Shown in pieces: positions 1-49,444 of a stretch of 64,000 nucleotides of DNA. This DNA is from an uncultured Gammaproteobacteria bacterium. Lineage in GTDB: Bacteria; Patescibacteriota; Patescibacteriia; UBA9934; CAMTUG01. The stretch covers positions 42-64,041 of the forward strand of contig CAZPQJ010000003.1 of NCBI GenBank assembly GCA_964588955.1, read 5' to 3'. The first letter of the stretch is position 1. Every line of letters starts with the position of its first letter. The notes under the pieces are model-generated. The model ran no database searches, was not told the DNA's origin, and worked only from the letters and a program-made list of their open reading frames with translations. A program made the translations under genes and the position numbers.

Positions 1-1170
1 GGCGATAAGCGTCGAACCGCTTCCACCGAATAGGTCGAGAACGTAATCACCTGGCTTAGTGCAGCGTCGCAATGACTTTTCGTGAAGCGTTGGATTCTTG
101 CTCGTCGGATGTTCGTAAGAAGACGAGGCGAGCCGCTTCACGAGCCACACGTTGAGGAGATCAAGTACGTCGTCGATAAGCTGATTACCCGTACCAACTT
201 CCTTGTTAAGAACTTCGTTTAGATTCATGACGGAGGGCGCGAGATACGGCTTCCCACGTGTGGCGTACACGCACGGTTCGCTGACCTTGTTGAAGGCAAC
301 GCCCGGCGTAGGATTTGCGTTGTCCTTGAGCCAAATGCAGACACGCCGGTTCGTCAGTCCGAATTCTCGGAACAGTTCCTGCATGAGATAGATGTAAGAC
401 TCGTCGCACCAATAGAAGGCGTGGACGTCATGCTTCGCAACGGCGAGCGCGTTTTCCATCGTCTTCCTGATGAACGCGCGATAGTCTTTGTCGCTCAGAC
501 TGTCATTCGTCTTGTGGCCTCCGTACTTCCCAGCCGTGCCAACGCCTTTGTCGTAAGAAAGGCCGATGTTGTAGGGAGGATCGCAGGCAATGAAGCTCAC
601 GTCTCGCTTGCCAACGAGTAATGCGACATCTTCCGCCTTGGTCGAGTCTCCGCAGAGCAGACGGTGAGAACCGAGAACGTAAAGCGTTCCGGGTTTCGTC
701 ACGGGTTTCTTGATTGCGGCGATCTCCTTCACCACATCGAACTCGTCATCTTCAGTCTCAAGCGTCTCGTCCCAAATGTTGGTGATGTCTTCGCTGTCGA
801 ACCCGACGTCGAGTAGTAGATCGATATCGAATCCTTCGGCGAGCTTTGACCAATCCCAATCGCCGTGAACGCGATTGCTTGTCAGAAGATACTGGTCGTA
901 CTCGGACTGCGTGAGCTTACGGTTCGGAACACGTACTTCGATCTCCTCGTTCTCACGTCCAAGGAGTTTCAGCACAGCAAGCCGCTGATGACCTGCCAGT
1001 ACCTTGTCATCCGCGTCGATGACAGGGATCTCAACAAGATTAAATTTCTTGAGACTCTTCGTGAGATCCTCGACCTGCTTCGGACTCATGACGCGTGGGT
1101 TCTTGTCGTTCGGAATAAGGTCTGCGGCGCGCCGCTTCTCGGTGCGCCATGTGAGTTTTGTCATAAAGAT
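1..1170 (-). CDS. ParB-like nuclease domain fused to an N6-adenine/N4-cytosine DNA methyltransferase. The C-terminus runs off the window start.
   Basis: The minus-strand translation from the ATG at 1170 reads MTKLTWRTEKRR..NDKNPRVMSPKQVEDL..VIDADDKVLAGHQRL (ParB/Srx-like N-terminus), then a DPPY motif (IACDPPYNIGLSYD) and FGGSGST typical of beta-class amino-MTases. The ORF is open to position 1. Confidence 0.8.
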   Translation of the reverse strand, partial: MFMTKLTWRTEKRRAADLIPNDKNPRVMSPKQVEDLTKSLKKFNLVEIPVIDADDKVLAGHQRLAVLKLLGRENEEIEVRVPNRKLTQSEYDQYLLTSNRVHGDWDWSKLAEGFDIDLLLDVGFDSEDITNIWDETLETEDDEFDVVKEIAAIKKPVTKPGTLYVLGSHRLLCGDSTKAEDVALLVGKRDVSFIACDPPYNIGLSYDKGVGTAGKYGGHKTNDSLSDKDYRAFIRKTMENALAVAKHDVHAFYWCDESYIYLMQELFREFGLTNRRVCIWLKDNANPTPGVAFNKVSEPCVYATRGKPYLAPSVMNLNEVLNKEVGTGNQLIDDVLDLLNVWLVKRLASSSYEHPTSKNPTLHEKSLRRCTKPGDYVLDLFGGSGSTLIA

Positions 1171-1356
1171 GACGTTAAGAATGAATAGCGGGAAAAAGAA
1201 AACGCCCGCTCTGCACGGAACGAAAGCAAAAAATGCTTTTCGTCCTGTACAGAACGGGCGTTGCCGAGGCGATGCCTCTCGGGAATCAATGATTCCGTCT
1301 ATCGCTTACGCGAAATTCGCAAGACTCGTTGCCGCAAGGGCTAGAATCTTCAATTG

Positions 1357-1839
1357 TTAGTCGGTTTTTACATATAGTGGAATGCCTTGGGGTGGCATGA
1401 CGACCTTGATCTCGCGTCCCTTGGCGCGTAGATCATTGATCCGAGCCATGTCCTCTTCCGGAAGGGGAAAGAAGGCTTCAATGCGGTTACCTTCGATCTT
1501 GAAGGATTCCGTGAACGCCCGCCCGGCTTCGCCGTTCATCGCGGACTTGTGCAGATGACGCGCGAGGCTTTTCGGGTTGTTCGCCTTACGGCGGTGAAGA
1601 GTGAAGTCGGTGACGAGAAAGACGCTGACCGTCTTGCCGTCATCCTCGAGGCGGATTGTGGTCGGTCTTTCCATAGGTATTCCGCTCTCGCCACTGACTG
1701 CCAGTTTGTCGGTGAACGAAGACGTCGCCGCCCTGATTTGTAGCGATTTGTTTAGCGATTTTTTCTGCTGCTTTCTGCGTGGGAACGACGACGGTGTCGC
1801 GGGAAGCCTTCTCCCGGCGCACGCCCCAGCCGTCTTCAC
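1357..1839 (-). CDS. Hypothetical protein. The N-terminus is low-complexity; the true start may be the internal Met near 1674 (MERPTTIRLEDDGKTV...).
   Basis: ORF only; a weak GAGAG Shine-Dalgarno precedes the internal ATG; no family recognised. Confidence 0.35.
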   Translation of the reverse strand: MKTAGACAGRRLPATPSSFPRRKQQKKSLNKSLQIRAATSSFTDKLAVSGESGIPMERPTTIRLEDDGKTVSVFLVTDFTLHRRKANNPKSLARHLHKSAMNGEAGRAFTESFKIEGNRIEAFFPLPEEDMARINDLRAKGREIKVVMPPQGIPLYVKTD

Positions 1840-1922
1840 GCTTCAAAACGTGTTGGTTGGCCATAAAATAAATTAGGAATCATGCGACTATGATACGCCC
1901 GGCATTATTTAGCTGTCAACGA

Positions 1923-1975
1923 GTTCAACAAACATTGAACAACATTTGACAACGTTGCTCATCCTGATCCATAAT
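1923..1975 (+). promoter_or_regulatory. Putative operator and promoter of the LexA-like gene: an inverted repeat GTTCAA-N6-TTGAAC followed by a sigma70-like promoter.
   Basis: The inverted repeat gttcaacaaacattgaac lies at 1923-1940. It is followed by TTGACA (1946-1951), an 18-nt spacer and CATAAT (1970-1975), which ends 8 nt before the ATG at 1984. This would give a near-leaderless transcript with the operator abutting the -35. Confidence 0.45.
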
Positions 1976-1983
1976 ATTGCCGT

Positions 1984-2652
1984 ATGCATCCCATCCAAAA
2001 AGCAATTCTCGATCTCGCAAAGACTCGGAATATAGCCAAAATGACGCTCCGTGACCTTGGATTGGCGGTCACTGGCAAGGAGGAATTGCCCCAGAAGATG
2101 AAGTATCACCGTGAGAAGCTGATCGAAGCGGGACTTTTGCGGGTTGTCCACAATGGCGAGACGATTGAGCCCGTCGAATCTCGCGGCGCGACACCGGGAT
2201 TCGTACAGATTCCAATCCTTGGCGCGGCTTCCTGTGGTCCAGCCCTTGAAATCGCTCAGGAGAGCGTTGAAGGCTATCTCGTCATGTCCGAGAAGCTCGT
2301 ACCAGCCAATCATGATGCGGTTTTTGCCCTTCGCGCCGTCGGTCCCTCGATGAACCTCGCGAACGTGAATAACAAAACGATCGAGGACGGCGACATCGTC
2401 CTCGTGGATGGGAATGTCAGACAGCCATCGAACAACATGTATGTTCTTTCCGTCATCGGTGACGCCGCCAACATCAAGAAATACGTAGAGGAAGGAAACG
2501 GCCAAATCGCTCTCGTGTCCGAATCCACGGAGGATTTTCTTCCCATCTACATCCACCCAGAAGACGATTCGAGTTTCTTTATTAACGGAAAAGTAATCGA
2601 CGTCTTCAAGAAAAGGACGAAGCAGAAACAATATGCACATCGGCCATTCTGA
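1984..2652 (+). CDS. LexA/CI-like repressor: an S24 peptidase with an N-terminal winged-HTH domain.
   Basis: The N-terminus (MHPIQKAILDLAK..MTLRDLGLAV..KLIEAGLL) resembles the LexA DNA-binding fold. The C-terminus carries the S24 Ser/Lys dyad (AVGPSMNLANV ... ANIKKY) and the DGDIVLVD beta-strand typical of LexA/UmuD autoproteases. Confidence 0.75.
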   Translation: MHPIQKAILDLAKTRNIAKMTLRDLGLAVTGKEELPQKMKYHREKLIEAGLLRVVHNGETIEPVESRGATPGFVQIPILGAASCGPALEIAQESVEGYLVMSEKLVPANHDAVFALRAVGPSMNLANVNNKTIEDGDIVLVDGNVRQPSNNMYVLSVIGDAANIKKYVEEGNGQIALVSESTEDFLPIYIHPEDDSSFFINGKVIDVFKKRTKQKQYAHRPF

Positions 2653-3586
2653 AATTGTTCGCTTCGCTGACGATAGGGTTAACCTTAAGCGCGAGGACGT
2701 AAAGGAATATCGCGATCAGGTGAACCGTCTGCGCGATCGTCTTGAACAGCACATAGCGGAAAATCCCGCCTTCGCTCTGCGGAAGATGCTTCTTTCCGGT
2801 AGTCTCGCAAAGGGCACAGCACTAAAATCTATCAACGACATCGACGTTGCCGTGTACGTATCGGAATCGGACGCACCGGCCACAATGTCCGAGCTGATTG
2901 CAAGCGTGGCGGGTCGGCTTCGCACGGCATTTCCAAATTTCAAGCCCGAACAGGTCGTGCAGAACTCCTCGAACATCACAATTCTGTTCTCTGGCACCGG
3001 ATTGAAGGTCGACATTGTTCCCATCCTTTACGATCAGGATCCTGATTGGAAGGGTCACATTGTCTATGAGAACGGGAATAAGGTGCTCACAAGCATACCG
3101 ATGCACCTGGATTTCATTCGTCGCCGGAAGGCAAAGCACGAACAGCATTACGCGCAGATAATTCGACTTTTGAAGTATTGGGTTAAGTATCAGAGGTCGA
3201 AGAATCCCGAATTTCGCTTCAAGTCCTTCATGATCGAACTGTTGGTCGCCCACCTCGTGGATCGCGGCCTCGAACTCGAGGACTACCCGGAAGCTCTGGC
3301 GAATATATTCGCATACCTTGCCACGGACGCCTTCCGTACCGATATCGCATTCAGCGATCACTACGATCCGACCGATTGCCCGGAGTGTTCTGACCCTATT
3401 CGCATCTGGGATCCGGTGAACCACCAGAATAACGTGGCGAGTAGGTACACCACGGCACAGCGTGAGGCGATTATTGACGCTGCGCTTGAGGCTGGTGACG
3501 CCGTAGACTCAGCGCTCCGCGCCCCAACCAAAGCAGAGGCACTCCGTTACTGGCGCAAGGTCTTTGGGCCAACTTTTGACGCATAG
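2633..3586 (+). CDS. CBASS cGAS/DncV-like nucleotidyltransferase (CD-NTase).
   Basis: It has the GS...DID nucleotidyltransferase signature (GSLAKGTALKSINDIDVAVYV) with a third acidic residue in GLKVDIVP. It is the first gene of a four-gene operon and its start overlaps the end of the LexA-like gene by 20 nt. Confidence 0.8.
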   Translation: MHIGHSEIVRFADDRVNLKREDVKEYRDQVNRLRDRLEQHIAENPAFALRKMLLSGSLAKGTALKSINDIDVAVYVSESDAPATMSELIASVAGRLRTAFPNFKPEQVVQNSSNITILFSGTGLKVDIVPILYDQDPDWKGHIVYENGNKVLTSIPMHLDFIRRRKAKHEQHYAQIIRLLKYWVKYQRSKNPEFRFKSFMIELLVAHLVDRGLELEDYPEALANIFAYLATDAFRTDIAFSDHYDPTDCPECSDPIRIWDPVNHQNNVASRYTTAQREAIIDAALEAGDAVDSALRAPTKAEALRYWRKVFGPTFDA

Positions 3587-3588
3587 CT

Positions 3589-4098
3589 ATGTCTTACTCA
3601 ATGACCCGCACTGCCATCGAGGCATTCACCGTTACGCATGCTCGGCACATCGCCGCAAAGGTCGCGACCGACCTTCTTCGTTACACCCGTTACTACAAAA
3701 ATCCTACGATCGAGTTGATCAATAAGTACGAAGAGGAACTGGTTGCGCTCTTGAAGGCGGATTACCTGGACTACGTTATTTATGGGTACAAGCGTGATGG
3801 TAAGTGGGTCGAAGCCCTGCGTTATCACGCGCTTCCCGGTGGTACCCTGATGACCGACGATGATCCCGGAAAAATTCGCCCAGGAACCGATGTGCCAGGT
3901 GAAAATTTTGGTTCTTATCTTGTAAGGAATAGCCGCTGGGACAGCCTGCCGAAGGCGGAACAAGACCGCTTCGACGCGTCGCTTCCATTCTCGCGTAACG
4001 GTGTTCCTGAGCCCGAGCTGGTATCCGGCCGTTGGTCGCAGGATCACACTTATTCGGCACAAGGCCGTGGCATTACTCGAAGTACGATAATCCGCTAA
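3589..4098 (+). CDS. HORMA-domain protein, the CBASS type III signalling regulator (assigned from context).
   Basis: A 169-aa protein placed between the CD-NTase and the TRIP13-like ATPase, with 2-nt spacing on each side. Its size and position match bacterial HORMA1; no strong motif was recognised by eye. Confidence 0.5.
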   Translation: MSYSMTRTAIEAFTVTHARHIAAKVATDLLRYTRYYKNPTIELINKYEEELVALLKADYLDYVIYGYKRDGKWVEALRYHALPGGTLMTDDDPGKIRPGTDVPGENFGSYLVRNSRWDSLPKAEQDRFDASLPFSRNGVPEPELVSGRWSQDHTYSAQGRGITRSTIIR

Positions 4099-4100
4099 CT

Positions 4101-5030
4101 ATGGACACAGAAATTGATGATCTCTTTGACCGTCGAAGTTCCTTCCCAGATAGCGACGCCTCGACGAGATTCGGCCAGCTCGTAGGAATCGACGAAACCA
4201 AGAAACGCCTCATCGGTACCTTGGGTATTTTAGTGAATCCGCAGGGTGTACGTGATTGGGCGAAAAAGTTTCATAAGAAGAGTTCTTCGCTTCTCGACCT
4301 CGTTGAACGCCGACCTCCGCTGGTGATTTTGGCTGGTGATGTAGGTACAGGAAAGACAGAGCTCGCAAGCACCGTCGGTGATCCCGTGGCACGTCAGGAA
4401 GGAGTTGAGATCACTCTGTACCCGATCAGTCTGTCGACCCGTGGGTCCGGCATGGTTGGAGAAATGACAAAACTATTAAGCGCGGCTTTCGATGAGGTTG
4501 TGAAGCGAGCGACGGAATTAAAGGGGTCAGGAGCAAAAGCAAAGGGTGCCGTTATTCTTTTGGTAGACGAGGCTGACGCTCTCGTGCAAAGCCGCGAAAA
4601 CGCACAAATGCACCACGAGGATCGCGCGGGGGTTAACGCGTTTATTCGCGGCGTTGACCGTCTTGCGGAGCGCCACCTTCCCGCAGTTGTCATCTTGTGC
4701 ACGAATCGTCTGTCCGCCATCGATCCGGCTGTCCGACGTCGTGCCGCCGAAACTTTTGTATTTGAGAGACCTAACGAAGAGCAGCGATCGTCAGTTCTTA
4801 AAAAGCCCTTGGCTGAGATTGGCTTCTCTGAGGAAGAGATTGCTAGCATCGTGACCACCACGGGCGTCTCTGGGAGTCGTGAATATGGCTTTACTTACTC
4901 GGACTTGACCCAGAGGCTACTTCCTTCAATCGTTTTGGACGCCTACCCTGACCACGCGGTCGTCTTTGACCGTGCTTTGGAGATCGCGTCTTCAATCCAT
5001 CCCACGCCGCCTTTTCAGGAGTCCAAATAA
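4101..5030 (+). CDS. TRIP13/Pch2-like AAA+ ATPase, a CBASS type III accessory protein.
   Basis: Walker A (LVILAGDVGTGKTELA) and Walker B (VILLVDEADAL) motifs are present. The start at 4101 (MDTEIDDLFDRR) lies 2 nt after the HORMA stop codon. Confidence 0.8.
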   Translation: MDTEIDDLFDRRSSFPDSDASTRFGQLVGIDETKKRLIGTLGILVNPQGVRDWAKKFHKKSSSLLDLVERRPPLVILAGDVGTGKTELASTVGDPVARQEGVEITLYPISLSTRGSGMVGEMTKLLSAAFDEVVKRATELKGSGAKAKGAVILLVDEADALVQSRENAQMHHEDRAGVNAFIRGVDRLAERHLPAVVILCTNRLSAIDPAVRRRAAETFVFERPNEEQRSSVLKKPLAEIGFSEEEIASIVTTTGVSGSREYGFTYSDLTQRLLPSIVLDAYPDHAVVFDRALEIASSIHPTPPFQESK

Positions 5031-5034
5031 CGCT

Positions 5035-5793
5035 ATGCCAAATCGAGCAAAAGCACAGTCAACTAAAGACGGCAAGACCTTTCTCAAAGAACGTTTTATT
5101 GACGTCGAGAAGGTGTTTGTAACAAAACTGAAGGCAGATCAACGTGCTATCACTCATGATGGAGCCCTGGGGGACACCACAGAAGATTCGTGGATTGAGC
5201 TTCTTCAGCGGTATCTTCCTTCTCGTTATAAAGTTGCTAAAGCTTTCGCGGTGGATCACTTGGGAAATACCACGCAACAACTTGATTGTCTGATTTTTGA
5301 TGCGCATTTTACTCCGGCACTATTCGGAAAGGATAAGAACCTGTACGTTCCAGCAGAAGCTGTTTACGCAACTTTTGAAATTAAACAAACGGCAAATGCC
5401 ACCCATCTGAAAGCGGCGGCAAAAAAAGTTGCGTCGTTGCGTGCGTTACAACGCACATCTGTTCCTCTTACATACGGTAAAAAACAAAACCCGGCGAAAA
5501 AGCCCTTCCCGATCATCGGCGGTCTGATCTCCATGAACGCGTCGTGGAAAGGTGGTTTGGGATCAGCTTTCTTGACTCAGTTCGACTCGTTGAAAAAAGA
5601 AAAATCTCTTGATCTTGTACTTACGGCGGAGCACGGATTTTGCGACCATCTTACGCCCGCCAATGAACGCGAGGTTGTAACAGGACCCGGTTCCTTACTG
5701 CGAGGATTATTTCGTCTGCTTGATAGTCTCAGGTCTCGGGCGTCGGTAGTTGCGATCGATTGGAAAAAATATGAGGCTGTATTTGAGGACTAG
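5035..5793 (+). CDS. nucC: NucC-like restriction-endonuclease-fold (PD-(D/E)xK) nuclease, the CBASS effector.
   Basis: A PD-(D/E)xK arrangement is visible (LDCLIFD ... YVPAEAVYATFEIKQ). Long colinear similarity to E. coli NucC, as far as recalled from memory, is seen in WIELLQRYLPSRYKVAKAFAVD, KVASLRALQRTSVPL and PIIGGLIS. The gene sits 4 nt after the TRIP13-like stop codon. Confidence 0.7.
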   Translation: MPNRAKAQSTKDGKTFLKERFIDVEKVFVTKLKADQRAITHDGALGDTTEDSWIELLQRYLPSRYKVAKAFAVDHLGNTTQQLDCLIFDAHFTPALFGKDKNLYVPAEAVYATFEIKQTANATHLKAAAKKVASLRALQRTSVPLTYGKKQNPAKKPFPIIGGLISMNASWKGGLGSAFLTQFDSLKKEKSLDLVLTAEHGFCDHLTPANEREVVTGPGSLLRGLFRLLDSLRSRASVVAIDWKKYEAVFED

Positions 5794-6296
5794 CAGAGAT
5801 CCGGATTTTCGTTCTTCAGAAATACGAAAAACCAATGATGCTCACCATTCTTGATCTGCCGTGCCTTGAGTTCGCCGTTCCGCACCTTCTTGGCAACAGT
5901 TGTATGGTGCCAACCGAACTTCTTTTTGAGATCGTCAGATGATAACCAAATATCGGACTTACAAGCGACTTCTCCGGGGATCACGCCTTCCTTCACGGCC
6001 TTCTGACAGACCGGGCATTTGATCCCGAATTGGTCATACCAGCCCTCATCGTTGAACATGTGCTGCGAACACACAGCGCATGAGTAGGTACCCTGACCCG
6101 TAACGGCAAATCCATCAGGCTCTTTGAGAAGCCGCTCCTTCCACTGTTCCATCCTTACATGAACGTCGAGCAAAGTTCGGTAAAGTCCCAGGAGATTTTC
6201 GGAATACTCCAACGCTTGATCGTCAGTTAAATCTTGGTCATATTCTTTCTTCCAAAGTTCTTTGAAGGATTCGATCTGTTCGCGTTTTGTGCGCAT
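5790..6296 (-). CDS. Zn-ribbon plus excisionase-family HTH protein, a possible regulator or recombination directionality factor. The ORF extends to 6422 and the start is uncertain.
   Basis: Two CxxC pairs (CAVCSQH...CPVCQK) are present. The C-terminus (LSSDDLKKKFGWHHTTVAKKVRNGELKARQIKNGEHHWFFVF) resembles excisionase/HTH_17-type DNA-binding domains. Confidence 0.5.
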   Translation of the reverse strand: MRTKREQIESFKELWKKEYDQDLTDDQALEYSENLLGLYRTLLDVHVRMEQWKERLLKEPDGFAVTGQGTYSCAVCSQHMFNDEGWYDQFGIKCPVCQKAVKEGVIPGEVACKSDIWLSSDDLKKKFGWHHTTVAKKVRNGELKARQIKNGEHHWFFVFLKNENPDLC

Positions 6297-6439
6297 AAAA
6301 TCAGGGTTAATTTTAACTTGAGACACACCCCGTTTTCGTGTCTCATTTGTCTCATTTTGCCATGTGACCCGGGTGCTCGCACGACCCCCTAAAAAATCGC
6401 TCTGGGGGTTAAGGGAAATCAAGTTCTGTACCCGCCCGG

Positions 6440-6479
6440 GGAGCCAACAATGCCTCAGCAGAAATGCTGGGGTTTTGTT
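6440..6479 (+). terminator. Copy 1 of a 40-nt direct repeat holding a GNRA-tetraloop hairpin followed by a U-tract; it looks like an intrinsic terminator.
   Basis: The repeat is ggagccaacaatgCCTCAGCAgaaaTGCTGGGGttttgtt. It has an 8-bp stem (6453-6472) with a GAAA loop, then TTTTGTT. Confidence 0.5.
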
Positions 6480-6530
6480 ATGGTTTTGAGGCTACCTCAG
6501 GTGGGGTGAGAACTGGTATGCTTCGGATGT

Positions 6531-6884
6531 ATGAAAAAGAGTTTGATTGTTGGATTGTCTTTACTCGGCCTTCTTGTGTTATACGCCTTTGGAATGTTCG
6601 GGTGGGAAATGTATGTACAAGCCACGCAATTGCCGCGAGTTGAACAAGAAATGGGAATTGATTTGGGAACTCCGGAAGTCGATGGCCGTGAGGTGATTCA
6701 GTTTGTTCGAGTTGATGAAGATGGAATCGCATATCATGCAGGTGTACGTAAAGGTGATGTTCTCAACCAGTCATCGTTAGCTGAATTTGTGAATGCGTAT
6801 CTTGATGCTCAGCGATCCTTTTCATTTGTTGTTTTACGCGAAAATCAGAATGTGACAATTGTCATAGAGAAAGACACGCAATAG
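6531..6884 (+). CDS. Membrane-anchored PDZ-domain protein.
   Basis: An N-terminal TM/signal segment (MKKSLIVGLSLLGLLVLYAF) is followed by a PDZ-like segment (GIAYHAGVRKGDVLNQ). Confidence 0.55.
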   Translation: MKKSLIVGLSLLGLLVLYAFGMFGWEMYVQATQLPRVEQEMGIDLGTPEVDGREVIQFVRVDEDGIAYHAGVRKGDVLNQSSLAEFVNAYLDAQRSFSFVVLRENQNVTIVIEKDTQ

Positions 6885-6991
6885 GTAAAGAGGATTGTTT
6901 AATATCAAATCAAATCTACCCCTGCGAATTTTTGGGATGCTGATGTAGTCCCCATAGTCCACAATCGCGGTTCTAACACGCTCCACGACGC

Positions 6992-7033
6992 GGAGCCAAC
7001 AATGCCTCAGCAGAAATGCTGGGATTTTGTTTT
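6992..7033 (+). terminator. Copy 2 of the 40-nt hairpin/U-tract repeat.
   Basis: Apart from one G/A change, the sequence is identical to 6440-6479. It lies downstream of the PDZ gene and immediately upstream of the next MKKSL-leader gene. Confidence 0.5.
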
Positions 7034-49401: not shown

Positions 49402-49444
49402 ACTTTTGTCAATGGCTAATGATGCTGAAGCTATTGACAAAAGT
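49402..49444. promoter_or_regulatory. Perfect 12-bp inverted repeat (ACTTTTGTCAAT ... ATTGACAAAAGT), a candidate operator in the AT-rich divergent promoter region of the GC-rich island.
   Basis: Each arm contains TTGACA. The region 49300-49576 is AT-rich and sits between two divergently oriented GC-rich genes. Confidence 0.5.

Follow-up and report, generated by a model that had tools for sequence, protein, structure and literature searches.

A predicted self-cleaving LexA-type repressor stands ahead of a type III CBASS operon on a mobile island of Patescibacteria

In the current study, we examined a locus in which a gene for a repressor of the LexA/S24 family lies directly ahead of a type III CBASS (a system for signaling against phages that is based on cyclic oligonucleotides), the two being carried by a mobile island. 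The locus sits close to the left end of a 64,000-nt stretch of DNA (positions 42 to 64,041 of contig CAZPQJ010000003.1, assembly GCA_964588955.1; hereafter the window, to which all coordinates refer), whose chromosomal GreA has its closest named relatives exclusively among the Patescibacteria. A sequence-only reading of this DNA had placed an S24 gene immediately upstream of the CBASS genes with a 20-nt overlap in a different frame, and these coordinates check out: the repressor gene occupies 1984..2652 of the plus strand, and the CD-NTase open reading frame (ORF) opens at 2633, in another frame and 20 nt before the repressor gene ends. Following the repressor on the same strand are genes for a CdnC-type cyclase, i.e., the CD-NTase (2633..3586; PADLOC Cyclase PDLC00808, 2.4e-127; Pfam SMODS), a bacterial HORMA protein (3601..4098, ORF open from 3589; Pfam bacHORMA_1, 2.2e-49; PADLOC, 3.4e-63), a TRIP13-like AAA+ ATPase (4101..5030, ORF open from 4032; PADLOC, 1.1e-130), and a NucC endonuclease effector (5035..5793, ORF open from 4966; PADLOC Effector/NucC, 6.4e-72; Pfam DUF6602, 3.1e-28), the starts of the HORMA and ATPase genes being those called in L135, another contig that carries a copy of the island. 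Judged by its gene content, this contiguous, codirectional CdnC-HORMA-TRIP13-NucC set is an authentic type III CBASS operon.

The repressor is 222 aa long and, from its domain content and its alignment with LexA, is a bona fide member of the LexA/S24 family with a predicted cleavage site (Cys84-Gly85) and Ser/Lys dyad (Ser122 and Lys165) that are both intact. Its sole Pfam domain is Peptidase_S24 (PF00717; E=1.7e-14), a model to whose entire length residues 77-205 align, and the protein also matches phrog_4 (transcriptional repressor). In translation, the GPSM and KKY motifs are G120-P121-S122-M123 and K165-K166-Y167. When a profile built from 28 family members was compared with the structure of E. 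coli LexA (7b5g), the two aligned end to end across both domains (E=4.7e-16), in a register that sets C84-G85 on A84-G85 of LexA, S122 on S119, and K165 on K156. G85, S122, and K165 are invariant (28/28 homologues), and some homologues have Ala-Gly in place of Cys-Gly, the latter being the scissile bond used by UmuD. Taken alone, the window repressor has no match to the Pfam LexA_DNA_bind model (PF01726) at E<=0.01; the winged helix-turn-helix (wHTH) is assigned because profile positions 22-70 align to LexA residues 28-70 and because PF01726 is recorded for many of the homologues. The earlier description of a LexA-type wHTH joined to an intact S24 dyad is thus borne out by the S24 match, the LexA register, and the invariance of the catalytic residues. 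Pairwise identities within the family are mostly 30-60%, and the persistence of scissile bond and dyad across so divergent a set of proteins would argue that self-cleavage is a selected function. The N terminus, MHxIQ, is kept in about 130 homologues, and for this reason we take ATG 1984 as the true start rather than ATG 2041, which one public annotation uses to give a 203-aa protein that has lost the conserved MHPIQ N terminus of the DNA-binding domain.

The CapW/BrxR and CapH/CapP regulators described at CBASS operons have a different makeup. Neither a WYL domain (Pfam) nor a PADLOC match was found for the window repressor, which therefore does not have the wHTH-WYL-WCX architecture of CapW/BrxR. 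Similarly, no metallopeptidase domain was found in any neighboring gene, whereas a CapH/CapP module consists of a separate helix-turn-helix (HTH) protein and zinc metallopeptidase in divergent orientation. That the regulator differs from CapH/CapP had been proposed from the letters alone, and we agree: what lies here is a single S24 protein, codirectional with the CBASS genes.

Expression of the CBASS genes is probably tied to that of the repressor. A scan for sigma-70-type consensus revealed no promoter-like site inside the repressor gene or between it and cdnC (1984-2652), no terminator lies between the repressor and the CBASS genes, and we infer from these findings that they are cotranscribed. 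It could be countered that the two are adjacent without being linked in their regulation, with an internal promoter that escaped recognition driving most of the CBASS expression and the overlap of 20 nt reflecting genome compaction and nothing else. The genomes of Patescibacteria are indeed compact, and the promoter scan covers the sigma-70-type consensus only. Nevertheless, no promoter-like site of that type is present in the stretch where one would have to be, and behind most of the cargo-linked homologues examined the first cargo gene begins within -47 to +35 nt of the repressor gene, whatever the cargo may be, which is not what chance compaction would be expected to produce. We consider such unregulated adjacency quite improbable.

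The control region itself is compact. Three promoter-like sites were found in 1300-6600, and all of them fall within the 119-nt intergenic region 1865-1983; two match the sigma-70 consensus at 11 of 12 positions. The first, P(+) (1946..1975, plus strand), comprises TTGACA (1946-1951), an 18-nt spacer, and CATAAT (1970-1975), and is the promoter that the sequence-only reading had placed ahead of the repressor gene. The second, which that reading overlooked together with the operon behind it (a DUF2188 gene, a gene for a 105-aa protein, and genes for a ParB-methylase and the small and large terminase subunits, TerS and TerL), is the divergent promoter P(-) (1890..1919, minus strand), with TTGACA (1919..1914), an 18-nt spacer, and TATCAT (1895..1890). 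The intergenic region that holds P(+) must control the divergent operon too. The -35 hexamers of the two promoters stand back to back, 26 bp apart. On the repressor side, the -10 hexamer of P(+) ends 8 nt upstream of ATG 1984, too close for either a leader or a Shine-Dalgarno sequence to fit in. The same arrangement is seen among the homologues, in whose upstream regions -10-like hexamers cluster at distances of 6 to 8 nt from the ATG (36 hits in all, including 21 at 6 nt) and a Shine-Dalgarno-like sequence is present in only 5 of 115 nonidentical cases. Because of this pileup and the rarity of Shine-Dalgarno sequences, a leaderless mRNA looks like a trait of the family, and the repressor mRNA of the window is probably leaderless as well.

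The gap between the two -35 hexamers is occupied by a perfect palindrome, GTTCAA-N6-TTGAAC (1923..1940), which is unique in the 64 kb. Together with the hexamers, it makes up a candidate operator of four units with a TCAA/TTGA core (1914..1951): TGTCAA at 1914, GTTCAA at 1923, TTGAAC at 1935, and TTGACA at 1946, the outer two being the -35 hexamers of P(-) and P(+) and the inner two the palindrome arms. Read along the strand, TGTCAAC-GA-GTTCAAC (1914-1929) is a 9-bp tandem, of which TTGAAC-AACAT-TTGACA (1935-1951) is the mirror image. The four-unit pattern occurs once in the 64 kb and was recovered in 6 of 300 shuffles. To place these units in the context of the family, motif counts in the upstream regions of 115 S24 homologues were compared with those in 324 control upstream regions from the same loci. 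TGTCAA was present in 92 of the 115 (80%) and in 12 of the 324 controls (4%); the tandem GTCAA-N4-GTCAA, with its 9-bp period, in 20/115 versus 0/324; and GTCAA-N2-9-TTGAC in 22/115 versus 1/324. Relative to the predicted start, the family units concentrate at about -76/-68 and at the -35 box or in the spacer; those of the window lie at about -68, -60, -48, and -37. The family-level signal would thus seem to be repeated (T)GTCAA/TTGAC units, often in tandem at a 9-bp period. We also considered whether the TGTCAA enrichment was a mere signature of divergent -35 boxes, and rejected this idea, as the motif is still specific when set against the 324 upstream regions of the same loci. Papers from the Erill laboratory describe LexA of Patescibacteria as recognizing a direct-repeat motif (PMC7739468). 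As a separate observation, a perfect DnaA box (TTATCCACA/TGTGGATAA) was found in 37/115 homologue upstream regions versus 1/324 controls, about 40 to 60 nt before the ATG (e.g., in L129, L087, L091, and L073); the window's own promoter has none.

Most simply, two strong promoters, a LexA-type product, and family repeats that include the -35 boxes are read as repression of both promoters by the repressor, and negative control is what we argue from the two 11/12 matches. Dimers of the repressor would bind the four candidate units at 1914-1951, both -35 hexamers included, and in doing so would keep both promoters low and self-limiting, such that autorepression would set the basal level of the cotranscribed CBASS. 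Single-stranded DNA (ssDNA) arising from DNA damage or from phage replication would then lead to RecA-ssDNA filaments, and these, by analogy with LexA, CI, and UmuD, would presumably be the trigger for self-cleavage at Cys84-Gly85 by Ser122/Lys165. Cleavage would part the DNA-binding domain from the dimerizing domain, both operons would be freed, and more CBASS would be made alongside the methylase/terminase arm of the island. Taken as a whole, i.e., a repressor that shuts both promoters and whose RecA-stimulated self-cleavage releases CBASS together with the island's packaging genes, this is a proposal whose chances of being right and of being wrong we would put as about equal.

Several observations weigh against this proposal. 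The first concerns the operator. The sequence-only reading had taken the perfect repeat beside the promoter to be the operator; the repeat is there and is as perfect as claimed. However, when compared with shuffles, the occurrence in a 119-nt intergenic region of some 6+6 inverted repeat that is perfect and has a spacer of <=10 is at chance level (P=0.26), and in L056, the closest relative with a comparable promoter, the tandem is kept (GTCAAC-GA-TTTCAAA) and the palindrome partner is missing. For these reasons, we rejected the palindrome as an operator by itself and reread it as the inner pair of four. The unit spacing also varies across the family (TCAA-N4..7-TTGA; tandem periods of 9, 11, and 17), and because of this variation the operator is defined only approximately. 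A further caution comes from elsewhere in the window: at 49404-49441, in another divergent intergenic region, TTGTCAAT-N19-ATTGACAA forms back-to-back -35 boxes without any inner TCAA units, and it follows that outer TGTCAA/TTGACA pairs in this genome can be plain promoter elements, which makes the outer units ambiguous. In addition, the most conserved units of the family, at about -68/-76, lie upstream of the core promoter, where they would also suit an activator or an architectural role. Finally, cdnC has no obvious Shine-Dalgarno sequence, no recA is visible in the 64-kb window, and a LexA-like protein whose cleavage is independent of RecA has been documented (PMC7101444).

The position of the conserved units bears directly on whether control of the rightward promoter is negative, as our proposal assumes. 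In phage lambda, the mRNA for the S24 repressor is leaderless and runs on into rexAB, genes for abortive infection, with a lytic promoter diverging from it, and the island mirrors this architecture: an S24 repressor is the first cistron, its transcript is probably leaderless, abortive-infection defense genes follow, and a divergent promoter lies in the same region. Were the logic of cI-rexAB to hold as well, the S24 protein would repress the leftward operon only, and the rightward promoter would be either constitutive or under positive autoregulation. Production of CBASS would in that case go with the quiescent state of the element, and cleavage would turn the element on without inducing CBASS, or would even lower it. 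The best position-conserved family units, being outside the core promoter, are compatible with this, as is the location of the palindrome center, which from each predicted start is about 50 bp upstream, and an element with an integrase and a terminase arm needs a switch. Nevertheless, the rightward promoter already matches at 11 of 12 positions and should have no need of an activator, and in many relatives a TTGAC unit falls on the -35 box or in the spacer, a repressing position. LexA-family proteins are typically autorepressors, and the toxic cargo found behind relatives (MazF, restriction enzymes) likewise argues for tight negative control. We regard the lambda-like arrangement as having a real chance, albeit a minor one, of being correct, and favor repression of both promoters.

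The island on which these genes reside is about 10.9 kb long and has 13 genes. Its leftward arm comprises a serine integrase, a 253-aa gene, TerL, TerS, the ParB-methylase, the 105-aa gene, and DUF2188; its rightward arm comprises the repressor, CdnC, HORMA, TRIP13, and NucC, followed by a convergent 178-aa gene. TerS, TerL, and the integrase lie just beyond the window's left edge. The 505-aa and 136-aa genes are the large and small terminase subunits (TerL matches phrog_38, 7.3e-74; TerS matches too), and the recombinase belongs with the serine integrases of phage type (phrog_95, 2.3e-65). Copies of the element in L135, L136, and the window carry an identical repressor and are 97-99.9% identical in DNA, and their flanks differ; L135 and L136, for instance, are 97.3% identical across 10,923 bp and unrelated past both ends. 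The element occurs in at least three flanking contexts and hence is mobile.

Among the genes of the leftward arm, the ParB_N + N6_N4 DNA methyltransferase gene (1..1164, minus strand; Pfam N6_N4_Mtase, 1.1e-21) has its first ~388 codons in the window and had been missing from the ORF list because it runs off the left edge. The full gene in the L135 copy encodes 426 aa, the protein is ~70-72% identical to its counterpart in the related island L051 (tblastn), and the homologue in L052 matches phrog_498. The second gene of the divergent operon (1357..1674, minus strand) encodes the 105-aa protein; it is a called gene in L135-L138 and has homologues in the same position in L003, L007, L052, and L064, and its product has no Pfam, PHROG, or PDB match. 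The first gene (1640..1864, minus strand) encodes the 74-aa DUF2188 protein (Pfam, 5.3e-16; PADLOC PDC-S16, 1.2e-20; phrog_3220), for which no relative with a solved structure was found, and DUF2188 occupies the same divergent position in L003, L004, L054, and L064. At the other end, the convergent 178-aa gene (5790..6326, minus strand; ORF open to 6422) bounds the cargo slot on its right, shares 66-68% identity with the slot-closing gene of L051, and has homologues in L005, L031, and L163. Its product matches nothing in Pfam or PHROG and, on a reading of its sequence only, may have a C-terminal helix-turn-helix. The element appears to end at a terminator-like hairpin (6452..6481), as homology between the differently flanked copies ends at about 6481-6522. 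A terminator-like repeat of about 42 nt (GGAGCCAACAATGCCTCAGCAGAAATGCTGGGGTTTTGTTAT) was noted at this end (6440-6481) and again ~550 bp further on (6991-7031), as well as at 15307-15357 of L135 and on other contigs; it may represent a dispersed terminator family or be related to the insertion site. Scanning the window against Rfam and for tRNAs gave no hits, so it contains neither a tRNA integration site nor a known RNA element.

The mobility of the element bears on the possibility that the window protein is the housekeeping LexA of the host, i.e., the master SOS repressor, behind which CBASS happened to insert. Public annotations do name members of the family "repressor LexA," the family is widespread in Patescibacteria, and some of its clades occupy stable chromosomal contexts, for example beside MscL. 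A canonical chromosomal LexA, however, is a stable gene whose box stands before recA, uvr, and translesion polymerase genes, and within the 64-kb window the four-unit motif is found nowhere but at the repressor, with no recA in view. Moreover, the identical gene is present on element copies with three different flanks, the element carries its own integrase and terminase, and the whole clade of the window protein carries variable defense cargo. We rejected the housekeeping reading on the strength of the three flanking contexts and consider it extremely improbable. A full prophage with a lambda-like immunity region was rejected as well, since no capsid, portal, tail, or lysis genes are among the element's 13 genes. 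No primase, replicase, or helicase was recognized in the element either. An integrase, a repressor facing a divergent operon, and packaging genes, all in the absence of virion genes, is the combination that characterizes satellites of the type of the phage-inducible chromosomal islands (PICI).

Phage satellites are usually induced by helper proteins, and it is conceivable that the repressor answers a signal other than host RecA, such as an antirepressor from a helper phage, or that it cleaves itself independently of RecA in the manner already mentioned; the island and its CBASS would then respond directly to phage infection and not to DNA damage. In keeping with this, the island is satellite-like, having a terminase and an integrase and no capsid or tail genes, and its TerL is 43-50% identical to TerL proteins on IMG/VR contigs. 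The block of ParB-methylase, TerS, TerL, and integrase recurs in 20 IMG/VR contigs, often with the integrase directly after TerL. A pattern scan of 2.9 M IMG/VR contigs found no member of the S24 family; three of the TerL-containing contigs nonetheless carry a divergent S24 homologue. On the other hand, we identified no candidate for an antirepressor, and an invariant cleavage site and dyad in a very divergent family are what selection for self-cleavage predicts. A signal other than RecA is, in our estimation, unlikely, and we retain RecA-stimulated cleavage as the working proposal.

The slot behind the island's repressor takes interchangeable cargoes, of which CBASS is one, and the repressor is not an accessory specific to CBASS. 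This is illustrated by comparison of the window element (as copy L135) with L051, in which TerS is 90%, TerL 79%, and the right-end gene 66-68% identical, whereas the repressor is only 54% identical and the slot between repressor and right-end gene holds no CBASS, having instead a DUF8370/DUF8371 protein (PADLOC PDC-M36A). Similarly, L003 and L004 have repressors that are 75% identical and TerL proteins that are 56% identical, and their cargo differs. From this mosaicism, it follows that recombination breakpoints must flank the repressor gene on both sides. Within the clade of the window's repressor, defense or defense-candidate cargo lies behind every member: TIR (L001), PDC-M48B with a metallo-β-lactamase (MBL) fold protein (L003), CD-NTase with Cap15 (L004), HNH-SAVED with CD-NTase (Cap5; L005), PDC-M36A (L051), an HsdR-like protein with a methylase (L052), and a transmembrane (TM) effector (L056). 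Elsewhere in the S24 family, the cargo includes type III CBASS (L010), patatin with CD-NTase (L069), DUF2188 with Cap5 and CD-NTase (L047), ThsB-TIR with a caspase (L007), two ThsB with 8xMP (L142), OLD-like ATPase-TOPRIM proteins (L154), type II restriction-modification (RM) systems (L008, L021, and L072), and an Eco57I-like protein with Dcm (L070); further relatives have Dcm or Dam methylases, MazF toxins, or PDC-S05. In related islands, cargo is also found in a second slot, which separates TerL from the serine integrase: in L142 (9579-17144) it contains a reverse transcriptase (RVT_1), a ResIII helicase, and an N6_N4 methylase, and on many other contigs the integrase directly follows TerL.

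Across the 97 nonredundant repressors with visible downstream DNA, 39 have a CBASS, RM, DNA methylase, TIR, or MazF gene within 60 nt, a count that is uncorrected for clade redundancy and in which the Dcm-linked and MscL-linked groups are one lineage each. The distance from repressor to first cargo gene typically ranges from an overlap of 47 nt to a gap of 35 nt. Because this tight coupling recurs in dozens of independent loci, a regulatory link is far more credible than it would be from a single locus. A further arrangement was seen at 17 loci, where a longer LexA-like S24 protein (~245-251 aa) overlaps a MazF/PemK toxin gene (Pfam, 8e-23) by 4 nt, as in L009 (8001-8747 and 8744-9097) and also in L022, L025, L027-L030, L074, L077, L079, L082, L093, L106, L118, L120, and L125. 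These S24 proteins share a conserved C-terminal tail of ~35 aa (..DILKDLGPISKExYxYYxNL) and occupy the antitoxin position, where they are predicted to be self-cleaving.

With respect to precedent, the closest in architecture is lambda cI-rexAB, the closest in function are the Cap regulators, and the closest as elements are satellites of the PICI/P4 type and SXT with SetR. The window protein is built like E. coli LexA, UmuD, and lambda CI: the wHTH is N-terminal, the linker contains an Ala/Cys-Gly scissile bond, and the S24 domain, at the C terminus, has its Ser/Lys dyad, all in the LexA register. Unlike that of LexA, however, its gene belongs to a mobile island rather than to an SOS locus of the chromosome, lies in an operon with immune genes, and probably gives rise to a leaderless mRNA, and its candidate operator consists of TCAA/TTGA units and not of CTGT-N8-ACAG. 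In contrast to lambda, the island has no capsid, tail, or lysis genes, uses a serine integrase, and has cargo that is interchangeable among at least 10 system types. SetR of SXT is itself an S24 repressor. With phage satellites and integrative islands such as PICI, P4-like elements, and SXT, the island has in common a compact integrative layout, an integrase, a master repressor opposite a divergent operon, packaging genes without virion genes, and a swappable defense slot. It differs from PICI, P4, and SXT in its serine, rather than tyrosine, integrase, in the set of TerS, TerL, and ParB-methylase, in its Patescibacteria host, in having no recognized replication module, and, as far as can be deduced, in the transcriptional fusion of cargo to repressor.

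The comparison with CapH+CapP, CapW/BrxR, and CapK+CapS is perhaps the most instructive. As with these, the window repressor is a transcription factor of a kind that sits directly at diverse immune operons, including CBASS, and it plausibly is released by a DNA damage signal through proteolysis of the repressor. The window system differs in that one protein is both repressor and protease (S24), in place of an HTH protein paired with a zinc metallopeptidase, a WYL sensor, or a kinase pair; the repressor is codirectional with its cargo and is the first cistron of the cargo operon, rather than divergent from it; and the damage signal would run via RecA instead of by direct sensing of ssDNA. Experiments have demonstrated release of an immune operon by damage for CapH/CapP, and such release has been proposed for CapW and CapK/CapS (bioRxiv 10.1101/2022.04.27.489752; PMC9122588; PMC13373217). 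DUF2188 has been linked to defense and accompanies modules of the CapH/CapP type, with HTH and metallopeptidase (bioRxiv 10.1101/2022.04.27.489752), to which DUF2188 under the divergent promoter of the S24 repressor forms a parallel. Our full-text literature searches did not find CBASS combined with LexA and S24, the published accounts of CapW, CapH/CapP, and CapK/CapS that we consulted do not mention an S24-type immune regulator, and the literature searched holds no link between CBASS regulation and Patescibacteria; in that literature, islands and regulators of this kind are not described for the lineage.

One broader possibility is that Patescibacteria harbor previously undescribed capsid-less, terminase-encoding islands in which an S24 repressor and a swappable immune slot are fused in transcription (CBASS I-III, Thoeris-like TIR, TIR-caspase, RM, OLD-like, and PADLOC candidates), with RecA-sensed damage as the common trigger, and that the same family has radiated into a self-cleaving "antitoxin" position before MazF. 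We put this forward tentatively, thinking it somewhat more apt to fail in one of its parts than to hold in all of them.

Three couplers of anti-phage operons to DNA damage are known (the WYL protein CapW/BrxR, CapH+CapP, and CapK+CapS), none of which uses the self-cleavage chemistry of RecA/LexA. If our proposal is true, the oldest bacterial damage switch would have become a regulator that travels on board with the immune cargo it controls, which includes abortive-infection systems that need to be kept silent. The regulatory principle will not surprise specialists; what is new is the proposed single-protein, RecA-type solution, the breadth of the cargo, and the family of islands in Patescibacteria. 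These ultrasmall and mostly uncultured bacteria have an immunity and a complement of mobile elements that are poorly known, and the islands offer a first handle on their mobile defense islands and possible phage satellites. The repressor gene could also serve as an anchor for searches, given that the genes just downstream of it are enriched for defense and include several uncharacterized candidates. Because related repressors head many defense operons, DNA damage sensing may gate immunity in these bacteria.

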